Assembly (NCBI RefSeq): GCF_003334255.1
Contig: NZ_QOWU01000006.1
Reading direction: 5' to 3' (one strand)
Source: Escherichia coli
GTDB taxonomy: Bacteria; Pseudomonadota; Gammaproteobacteria; Enterobacterales; Enterobacteriaceae
Length of the DNA stretch: 64,000 nucleotides
Shown: piece after piece, positions 28,642 through 29,784 of the stretch
Numbering within the stretch: position 1 is the stretch's first letter
Layout: the number at the start of each line of letters is the position of its first letter
Program-made: the position numbers and the translations under genes
Notes under the pieces: generated by a model
The model's input: the letters and a program-made list of their open reading frames with translations, nothing else
What the model was told of the DNA's origin: nothing
The model's database searches: none

Positions 28642-28742
28642 ATGCCGGATGCGGCGTAAACGCCTTATCCGGCCTACAAAAGCGTGCAAATTCAATACAT
28701 TGCATGGGCCATGTAGGCCTGATAAGCGTAGCGCATCAGGCA
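28642..28742. repeat. BIME: two inverted REP (palindromic unit) elements
   Basis: tGCCGGATGCGGCGtaaacGCCTTATCCGGCCTACA (about 28642-28677) and inverted copy TGTAGGCCTGATAAGCGTAGCGCATCAGGC (about 28712-28742). Confidence 0.8.
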
Positions 28743-28791
28743 ATTTTACCTTTGTCATCAGTCTCAAGCCGCGGTTGCGGCTTTCTGAATC

Positions 28792-29523
28792 TTACTGTGG
28801 GAACCACTGGTCACTGATTTTTTGATAAGTACCGTCAGCTTTAATTGCTGCCAGCGCGTTATTCAGTTTTTCCAGCAGGGCTTTGTTATCCGGACGTACA
28901 GCGATGCCCAGGCCGGTGCCAAAATATTGCGGATCGGTCACTTTCTCAGTAGCAACACCAAGTTGTGGATTGGTTTTCAGCCATTCGTTTACCACCGCTG
29001 TGTCACCAAATACCCCATCAATACGACCATTTTTCAGATCGATAAAGGCATTCTGATAACTGTCATAAGAGACAGTTTTCACTTCCGGGTGCTGATCCTG
29101 AATATATTTCTGGTGCGTAGTACCGTTTTCCATCCCAATACGTTTGCCTTTCAGATCGGCAAACGTTTTGTAGGTATCTTTTTTGGCAATCACGACGGCT
29201 GAGTTTTCATAGTAGGGCGTGGTAAACGATACCTGTTTGCTACGCTCCGGGGTGATATCCATACCGGAGATTACGGCGTCATATTTTCTGAATTTCAGGG
29301 ACGGGATCAGGCTGTCGAACGCGTGATTAGTAAAAGTACATTCTGCCTGCATTTGTTTGCACAAGGCTTTTGCCAGATCGATATCAAAGCCGACAATCTC
29401 ATTATTAGCACCTATAGATTCAAAGGGTGGATAGGTGGCTGAAACGCCAAAATTGATTTTCTCTGCGGCAGAAGCACCGAAAGTAAAGGAAGCAAGTAAA
29501 GCGGCAAGAACTAACTTTTTCAT
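28792..29523 (-). CDS. artJ: Arginine-binding periplasmic protein ArtJ
   Basis: ORF 28792..29574; ATG at 29523 (MKKLVLAALLA) gives 243 aa; paralog of artI in this window. Confidence 0.9.
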   Translation of the reverse strand: MKKLVLAALLASFTFGASAAEKINFGVSATYPPFESIGANNEIVGFDIDLAKALCKQMQAECTFTNHAFDSLIPSLKFRKYDAVISGMDITPERSKQVSFTTPYYENSAVVIAKKDTYKTFADLKGKRIGMENGTTHQKYIQDQHPEVKTVSYDSYQNAFIDLKNGRIDGVFGDTAVVNEWLKTNPQLGVATEKVTDPQYFGTGLGIAVRPDNKALLEKLNNALAAIKADGTYQKISDQWFPQ

Positions 29524-29629
29524 GATGGAACTCCCGTCTGTCAATCTTATGATTTTTGGCCGTGTCTGCGGCATGGGATAACAATGCCATCAAGTGAATT
29601 TATATGCAATAAACATGATTAAATAATTT

Positions 29630-29672
29630 AAATGAAATAAAAAAGACGGACAACTTAGTGGGTTGTCCGTCT
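29630..29672 (-). terminator. Intrinsic terminator of artPIQM operon
   Basis: Minus strand hairpin GACGGACAAC-cccactaa-GTTGTCCGTC followed by TTTTTTATTT. Confidence 0.7.
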
Positions 29673-29695
29673 TCATTATAAGAATTTATGCACTA

Positions 29696-29784
29696 TGTAG
29701 GCCGGATAAGGCGTCCCCGCCGCATCCGGCACAGGCACCGTGCTGATGTCTGATGCGACGCTGGCGCGTCTTATCAGACCTACA
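29696..29784. repeat. BIME: two inverted REP elements
   Basis: TGTAGGCCGGATAAGGCGtccccGCCGCATCCGGCA and GATGCGACGCTGGCGCGTCTTATCAGACCTACA. Confidence 0.8.

Follow-up and report, generated by a model that had tools for sequence, protein, structure and literature searches.

The stretch of DNA described here (the window) comprises 64,000 nucleotides of Escherichia coli contig NZ_QOWU01000006.1 (RefSeq assembly GCF_003334255.1). Between 27.4 and 32.8 kb it carries the E. coli K-12 region in which rlmC, on the plus strand, is followed by artJ, artM, artQ, artI, and artP, all on the minus strand, and the 1.4 kb surrounding artJ show 100% identity to K-12-like genomes, with concordant annotations. 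On each side of artJ lie repetitive extragenic palindromes (REPs), arranged as bacterial interspersed mosaic elements (BIMEs). These REP and BIME repeats, the paralogy of artJ and artI, and the separate artJ transcription unit under ArgR control are already published; the subject of this report is the order in which they arose. It is very probable that artJ is an ancient gene with a unit of its own, and that the REP-family elements are late insertions that at most tune this unit and do not define it.

A 14-nt REP head motif (CTTATCMGGCCTAC, with up to two mismatches) occurs at exactly four sites in the window (28664, 28713, 29697, and 29770), all of which flank artJ, while none of 100 shuffled sequences reaches four. 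This motif replaced a REP pattern of fixed loop length, which caught only the Z2 unit because loop lengths differ between units. The four units are arranged as two inverted pairs with artJ between them, as an earlier note on this DNA had described, and the positions it gave (28642–28742 and 29696–29784) are right to a few bases. A REP is defined as an imperfect palindrome of 30–40 nt with a conserved GTAG immediately 5′ of the stem (PMC3333891). Each of the four units has GTAG or its complement CTAC together with a Y, Z1, or Z2 body, so the flanking palindromes do match the REP consensus. Both clusters are extragenic, between stop codons, and their minus-strand RNAs fold far better than shuffled sequences (z = −7.4 and −5.5). 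The region matches at least 13–58 places per E. coli genome, among the matches listed. REP features were sought in the MG1655 record over the artJ stretch and none was found, as its feature table has coding sequences alone.

Both clusters also match Rfam models derived from REP RNAs above the gathering score. The naRNA4 model scores 75.5 bits (gathering score 59.5) at 29700–29780, and ES036/CssrF scores 42.2 bits (gathering score 37.6) at 28678–28720, over the BIME-1 linker. These matches mark repeats and not dedicated small RNA genes. More broadly, naRNA4 (RF02564) serves as a generic model of the Y/Z2 pair, and ES036/CssrF (RF02751) does the same for the BIME-1 linker.

The pair between artM and artJ has the makeup of BIME-2, with Y and Z2 joined by a short linker of 17 nt. 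It lies 30 nt past the artM stop codon and 22 nt ahead of the artPIQM terminator, and so within the artPIQM 3′ untranslated region (UTR). K-12 has one Y/Z2 pair here, with no array in the window, and among Escherichia the number of REPs at this site ranges from one to four: strains 2779, C1, and C10 keep Y alone, the Z2 half being gone, and Escherichia sp. MOD1-EC7003 has four.

The element between rlmC and artJ is a single-copy inverted pair of Y and Z1 separated by a long L linker, which is the architecture that defines BIME-1 (PMC3333891; PMC1187871). Over its full length it can be aligned with nine other copies, and the same 152-bp unit with identical ends is found at fepA-entD, tkt, gcd-cueO, lpdA-yacH, and fbp. 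The core of its linker differs by one mismatch from WATCAANNNNTTR, which we take to be the consensus of integration host factor (IHF), and a truncated-type allele of the element, described below, has AATCAATACATTG in the linker, a perfect match to that presumed consensus. On the DNA itself, IHF would be expected to occupy the BIME-1 linker. The coordinates of these elements and of the neighboring genes are collected in Table 1.

Table 1. Genes, repeats, and transcription signals around artJ in the window, and terminator hairpins that are duplicated around BIME-1 at this and other loci.
Feature	Positions	Strand	Basis	Details
rlmC	27466..28593	+	ORF, annotation	23S rRNA m5U747 methyltransferase; convergent with artJ
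Left terminator hairpin copy	28596..28613	.	repeat and terminator scan	AAGCCGCATGTGCGGCTT; on minus strand then TTTTTTAT
BIME-1 unit	28614..28765	.	repeats, alignment with other copies	152 bp
BIME-1 left end	28614-28629			CAGATTGCTGACAAAG
BIME-1 Y REP	28644-28677			
BIME-1 L linker	28678-28712			35 nt
BIME-1 IHF-type core	28690-28702			ATTCAATACATTG
BIME-1 Z1 REP	28713-28741			
BIME-1 right end	28750-28765			CTTTGTCATCAGTCTC
Right terminator hairpin copy	28766..28783	.	direct and inverted repeat	AAGCCGCGGTTGCGGCTT; on plus strand then TTTCTGAATCTT
artJ	28792..29523	-	ORF, annotation, NCBIfam ArtJ_Ecoli	periplasmic arginine-binding protein, 243 aa, start MKKLVL
artJ 5′ UTR and control region	29524..29641	-		conserved across ~15 genera
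Conserved block	~29594-29609			plus-strand form GTGAATTTATATGCAA; probable ARG-box and -35 area
artPIQM intrinsic terminator	29674..29642	-	terminator scan, inverted repeat, conservation	13-bp stem then UUUUUUAU
BIME-2-type REP pair	29697..29783	.	head motif, repeats, Rfam naRNA4	
Y REP of artM-artJ pair	29697-29730			
Z2 REP of artM-artJ pair	29748-29783			
artM	29814-30482	-	ORF, annotation	permease gene
artQ	30482-31198	-	ORF, annotation	permease gene
artI	31205..31936	-	ORF, alignment, NCBIfam	243 aa, artJ paralog
artP	31954..32682	-	ORF, annotation	ATPase, first gene of artPIQM operon
Duplicated hairpin, rlmC-artJ				AAGCCGCnnnnGCGGCTT; 18 bp
Duplicated hairpin, lpdA-yacH				AAGCGGCT..GCCGCTT; 21 bp
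Duplicated hairpin, tkt-prohibitin				AAGGGCCGCnnnnGCGGCCCTT; 22 bp
Duplicated hairpin, fbp 3′ end				AAACGCCGGAGCAATCCGGCGTT; 23 bp; perfect direct repeat including asymmetric loop

The duplication that produced artJ and artI is old. The two proteins, both of 243 residues, are 65% identical and 81% similar over 241 ungapped residues (E = 2e-125), and their genes are 67.6% identical overall and 45.5% identical at third codon positions, which is near saturation. Each protein passes only its own equivalog cut-off among the NCBIfam models: ArtJ scores 535 bits on NF041765 (cut-off 510) and 386 on the ArtI model, while ArtI scores 537 bits on NF041764 (cut-off 522) and 398 on the ArtJ model. The relationship that the earlier note had seen at the protein and nucleotide levels is thus borne out by pairwise alignment, and the genes are indeed diverged paralogs, but they are not strictly tandem, as artQ and artM intervene. 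A mechanical list of open reading frames (ORFs) gives artJ as 260 residues from an upstream ATG at 29574; annotation and conservation place the start at 29523, and the extension (29524–29574) is an ORF-calling artefact.

A scan of one genome per species recovered 80 ArtJ loci from more than 20 genera of Enterobacteriaceae, including Escherichia, Salmonella, Citrobacter, Klebsiella, Raoultella, Enterobacter, Kosakonia, Buttiauxella, Cedecea, Atlantibacter, and Franconibacter. The order artP-artI-artQ-artM-artJ is colinear in 74 of them; of the remaining six, five are truncated at the end of a contig. Among the colinear loci, identity to the K-12 proteins is 83–97% for ArtJ and 83–99% for ArtI. 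These values lie above the identity between the paralogs, and therefore the duplication predates these genera, in keeping with the antiquity that had been supposed for it. The sixth locus, in Raoultella planticola ATCC 33531 (L090, 1–5000), has no artPIQM within 5 kb upstream of artJ. No other locus in the sample for which 5 kb upstream is available lacks artPIQM ahead of artJ, and either a rearrangement or a second copy of artJ could account for this case.

The signals that separate artJ from the artPIQM operon are also older than the repeats. On the minus strand, a terminator scan calls just two sites, one past each BIME in the downstream direction (29674..29642 and 28614..28595), and both consist of a GC-rich hairpin followed directly by a U-tract, as an intrinsic terminator is defined. 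In the artM–artJ spacer, the first of these adjoins a control block, TTATTGCATATAAATTCA..TGGCATTGT, whose core resembles TTGCATATAAATTCA in 73 of 77 spacers. Alignment indicates that hairpin and U-tract of the terminator, together with the whole block, are kept from Citrobacter to Cedecea. A sigma-70 scan for a minus-strand artJ promoter found none. According to one paper (PMC6640053), artJ and artPIQM form two distinct sigma-70 units, both under repression by ArgR. Outside Escherichia, the artM–artJ spacer has a median length of 180 bp, with 52 of 71 spacers between 150 and 195 bp, and REPs of the E. coli-type pattern occur in two of the 71, both from Citrobacter. In the alignment, the Escherichia REPs stand out as inserted sequence, with the artM stop codon on one side and the terminator on the other. 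Since REP-free genera keep the terminator and control block, and the REPs are optional within E. coli, the artJ unit came before the REPs and stands without them. Its independence is owed to the terminator and the ArgR-controlled promoter.

The earlier note had called another history plausible, in which artJ, after the duplication, separated into a REP-insulated transcription unit of its own; read in this way, the REP clusters on both sides would have made it independent. REP pairs do lie in both flanking spacers, REPs can attenuate transcription, and in tandem gene pairs REPs go along with stronger expression of the upstream than of the downstream gene (bioRxiv 10.64898/2026.03.23.713779). 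These points are outweighed by the REP-free genera, in which a canonical terminator and the conserved control block already part artM from artJ. They are outweighed as well by E. coli itself, in which about 30% of genomes lack BIME-1 and about 37% lack Z2 and the same artJ control region is kept. Moreover, the Y/Z2 pair stands upstream of the terminator and does not replace it. Insulation by REPs is therefore a very improbable origin of the artJ unit, and the BIMEs tune the art genes at most.

How far the repeats vary within the species was surveyed in 5,426 complete E. coli genomes, and alignments distinguish four states between rlmC and artJ. The K-12 form (hairpin, BIME-1, hairpin) is found in 1,702 genomes (31%). 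A truncated form, as in strain M15, from which the right hairpin and eight further bases are deleted, accounts for 1,471 (27%), and an empty site, with a 28-bp spacer consisting of one hairpin, for 1,655 (30.5%). The remainder of about 600 (~11%) includes the O157:H7 form with a phosphotransferase system (PTS) and sulfatase island. BIME-1 is thus absent from the site in at least 1,655 genomes. Between artM and artJ, Z2 is present in 3,427 genomes (63%) and absent from about 2,000. Strain C10 has BIME-1 without Z2, and therefore the two polymorphisms are independent. This agrees with a published account (PMC1187871, citing Bachellier 1997) that describes BIME-1 as present or absent as a whole and BIME-2 as varying in length, and rlmC–artJ has both filled and empty genomes in this sense. 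The truncated-type allele is shared with E. albertii and two other Escherichia lineages and is 90–91% identical to their copies, compared with 86% to the K-12 copy; the K-12 and truncated-type copies have a few right-end bases in common. Judged from these alignments, BIME-1 at this site may stem from one or several insertion events.

The artJ–rlmC junction (28594–28791) is, in addition, a hot spot for accessory DNA (comparison loci L003:1-3007, L011, L015, L016, L020, L021, and L035). The O157:H7 island (L003:1-3007) comprises PTS IIC/IIB and sulfatase genes, and the same gap of about 3.5 kb is also found in three further species of Escherichia. In Salmonella arizonae the gap is filled by genes for PTS IIC and a sulfatase, a two-component system lies there in a Klebsiella locus (L035), and Raoultella and Enterobacter loci have gaps of similar size. 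The O157:H7 artJ (L003:3008-3739) has only 91.8% nucleotide identity to K-12 artJ (28792–29523), about as distant as that of E. albertii (89.6%), which suggests that it entered together with the adjacent island. The last 400 nt of rlmC also diverge, by 3–6%, among ordinary E. coli strains.

The arrival of BIME-1 rearranged the terminators of both neighboring genes. The one hairpin of the empty allele is bordered by TTTTTTAT toward the artJ side and TTTCTGAATCTT toward the rlmC side. In K-12, each gene is followed by its nearer hairpin copy and then by BIME sequence, and the U-tracts are on the far copies. The left hairpin copy with TTTTTTAT is the only U-tract terminator downstream of artJ (called at 28614..28595, minus strand). 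The right copy has no U-tract in the artJ direction and is not called as a terminator there, and the left copy likewise fails in the rlmC direction. The left copy equals the single hairpin of empty-site strains save for one loop single-nucleotide polymorphism (SNP) in K-12. In E. coli B and strain C10 it is identical to the empty allele, and the K-12 ATGT loop is therefore a lineage SNP. The right copy is missing in the empty and M15-type alleles.

These observations fit a history in which artJ, as an ancient paralog of artI, would already have had its own ArgR-controlled promoter downstream of the artPIQM terminator in the ancestor of the sampled Enterobacteriaceae. At a much later time, two non-autonomous elements of the REP family would have entered the 3′-end regions bordering artJ in the Escherichia lineage. 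The Y/Z2 pair would have landed between the artM stop codon and the artPIQM terminator, and BIME-1 at the bidirectional terminator hairpin shared by the convergent rlmC and artJ. With the 3′ ends placed where they are predicted, the artJ and rlmC transcripts would now run through BIME-1 and overlap by about 190 nt, and both BIMEs would be transcribed within 3′ UTRs. There they would form stem-loops that slow 3′-to-5′ decay and partly terminate transcription, as has been reported for REPs elsewhere. REPs have been described as combined terminators and stabilisers in 3′ UTRs, and REP325 and REPs genome-wide act as local, context-dependent terminators and decay blocks (bioRxiv 10.64898/2026.03.23.713779).

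Several points weigh against this history. In K-12, the transcripts of artJ, rlmC, and artPIQM have 3′ ends that are predicted from sequence only. Terminal REPs show large variance from locus to locus and no general effect on half-life (bioRxiv 10.64898/2026.03.23.713779), and therefore both BIMEs could have no measurable effect. REP-like palindromes of other types occur in the artM–artJ spacer of Salmonella arizonae and of one Enterobacter. They are genus-specific and occupy the same spot, so the site has been colonised more than once. The REP pattern used here is specific to E. coli, and the statement that no REP occurs outside Escherichia holds for most sampled genera and not for all. Finally, the K-12 BIME-1 and the truncated-type copy at the same site are only 86% identical, no closer than to copies elsewhere.

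The same lack of a general half-life effect would fit BIMEs that are selfish or neutral insertions with no regulatory consequence here, in which case the double flanking of artJ would be coincidental. The persistence of all four rlmC–artJ states at high frequency and the independent variation of BIME-1 and Z2 point in this direction. In K-12, REPs are found in about 29% of convergent spacers (207/704) and about 6% of tandem spacers (146 REP-associated pairs compared with 2,451 candidate pairs without REPs; bioRxiv 10.64898/2026.03.23.713779), and therefore about 1–2% of genes would be doubly flanked by chance, which makes the position of artJ statistically unremarkable. Neutrality is harder to reconcile with the rearranged terminators, as the nearer hairpins have no U-tract and unchanged 3′ ends of artJ and rlmC are unlikely. 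In addition, convergent pairs that contain REPs are more highly expressed genome-wide (bioRxiv 10.64898/2026.03.23.713779). Purely neutral insertion is a possibility to be taken seriously, though it is held here to be somewhat improbable.

The two hairpins around BIME-1 are not peculiar to artJ, as the element sits between two copies of the local terminator hairpin at four of six distinct loci (Table 1). The hairpin-flanked copies are at 28596-28613 and 28766-28783 in the window, and at L097:1571-1766, L008:1197-1392, and L187:11760-11958; no hairpin duplication was found around BIME-1 at fepA-entD and gcd-cueO. The six loci make up the BIME-1 census, in which a further 250 kb of K-12 added one full-length element, that at gcd-cueO. 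A metagenome scan with the BIME-1 end motif gave mostly chance matches in unrelated DNA, with at least about nine loci that are real BIME-1 copies, and scans of viral contigs for BIME-1 returned the fepA-entD copy alone. Each locus has its own hairpin sequence, and in every case the junction falls 2 nt beyond the stem. Empty alleles with exactly one hairpin exist in other E. coli strains at rlmC–artJ, lpdA-yacH, and tkt-prohibitin. At fbp the BIME-free comparison is weaker, as the single hairpin comes from another E. coli strain in which the loop is inverted and the neighboring gene is different. This inverted loop (GCAA compared with TTGC, with identical stems; L187:11760-11782 and 11936-11958 compared with L217:497-525) appears to be a loop-inversion polymorphism.

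At tkt-prohibitin, E. coli VTB96933v (L216:340-730) carries a tandem form, hairpin-BIME-1-hairpin-BIME-1-hairpin, with three perfect copies of the 22-bp hairpin. The second BIME-1 of this strain starts with a terminal repeat of the right-end type (GAGACTGATGGCAAAG), and therefore its middle hairpin and the neighboring ends form one long perfect palindrome. Two ways of accounting for the flanking hairpins were rejected. They are not part of the repeat, as their sequence is locus-specific and equals the single hairpin of the BIME-free allele, and BIME-1 did not insert into a hairpin loop, as both flanks are complete hairpins.

In its simplest reading, the arrangement would be a target duplication, with the hairpin determining how long it is. 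A more specific proposal is that BIME-1 integrates at terminator hairpins through structure-placed cuts about 2 nt outside the stem on each strand, which would duplicate the whole hairpin; that this is both correct and new is put forward only tentatively, with more doubt than confidence. The hairpin copies may instead owe nothing to insertion, having arisen by template-switching during replication, or hairpin-BIME-hairpin may be ancestral in Escherichia, with empty alleles produced by slippage only. Direct repeats of 18–23 bp that enclose a palindrome lend themselves well to deletion by slippage, and such repeats are what BIME-1 has. The truncated-type alleles common to E. albertii and two further Escherichia lineages imply that BIME-1 has long been at the rlmC–artJ site, the loops of the two hairpin copies differ at three loci, and no enzyme is known for such cuts. 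Slippage excision still needs a prior duplication, however, and at all four loci the hairpin is locus-specific and equal to the single hairpin of BIME-free alleles. Other genera likewise have one orthologous hairpin at rlmC–artJ (AAAAGCCGCnnnnGCGGCTTTT in Citrobacter, Enterobacter, and Kosakonia species), and the constant junction position also speaks for insertion. An origin without target duplication is thus considered unlikely, though with a substantial residue of probability.

If insertion with hairpin duplication is true, it would be the mark that REP/BIME insertion leaves in vivo. Slippage between the hairpin copies would then account for the clean excision that has been reported for whole BIME-1 elements, and each insertion would part the neighboring genes from their U-tracts and carry the 3′ UTRs of both through the BIME. 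The in vivo movement of REPs and BIMEs has been a question since the 1980s, and a 2026 preprint calls the mechanism ‘not fully established’; a hairpin-sized duplication with filled, empty, and tandem alleles is a concrete footprint. The hairpin duplication at BIME-1 is not mentioned in the literature searched, a body that does not extend to the primary descriptions (Bachellier 1997; Boccard and Prentki 1993), and as an observation it may be new. For artJ itself, the order of events is corrected: the repeats came long after artJ became independent and are still optional, so they cannot be the cause of that independence. It also follows that natural E. coli strains differ in 3′-end architecture at artJ and rlmC, at lpdA-yacH, and at tkt.

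Compared with known mobile elements, BIME-1 resembles MITEs, the miniature transposable elements with inverted repeats. It is likewise short and non-coding, with 16-nt inverted ends (13/16 complementary), flanking target repeats, and filled and empty alleles. MITE target duplications generally have a fixed short length that is set by a DDE transposase. The repeat flanking BIME-1, in contrast, is 18–23 bp long and its length tracks the size of the hairpin. Of the MITE features, BIME-1 has the inverted ends, hairpin repeats at four of six loci (none at fepA-entD and gcd-cueO), and no fixed repeat length. The only associated enzyme is a Y1/HUH transposase (RAYT), whose family is stated to make no larger target site duplications (PMC2817692). 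REP dimers in palindromic targets have been described in other phyla (Di Nocera 2013, PMC3733652), with the same link between doublets and flanking palindromes. Those doublets split one palindrome into halves, and their flanks belong to the repeat family, whereas BIME-1 has a complete locus-specific hairpin on both sides and BIME-free alleles have one copy of it.

The BIME-1 next to artJ has the inverted Y and Z1, the long linker with an IHF-type core, and the length of about 140–150 bp of the IHF-binding REP doublets known as RIP or RIB. The element itself is no different from these, and the duplication of the host hairpin at its flanks is the feature seen here. The artM–artJ pair shares Y and Z2, a short linker, a full-length naRNA4 match, and a place in the 3′ UTR between tandem genes with the BIME-2/REP325 naRNA4 unit (RF02564). 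BIME-2 usually forms tandem arrays, while the K-12 site has one pair, and here a genuine intrinsic terminator comes after the pair, so that the pair is not the terminator.

A parallel to the art locus as a whole is argT-hisJQMP, the cluster of the LAO and histidine binding proteins. REPs were first described in the hisJ–hisQ spacer of that cluster. It encodes a sister ATP-binding cassette system with two binding-protein paralogs, HisJ and ArgT, which are 70% identical, and one of the two genes is separately controlled (PMC6640053). The art cluster differs in that the paralog with its own transcription unit is found downstream of the permease genes, and its two paralogs share 65% identity.

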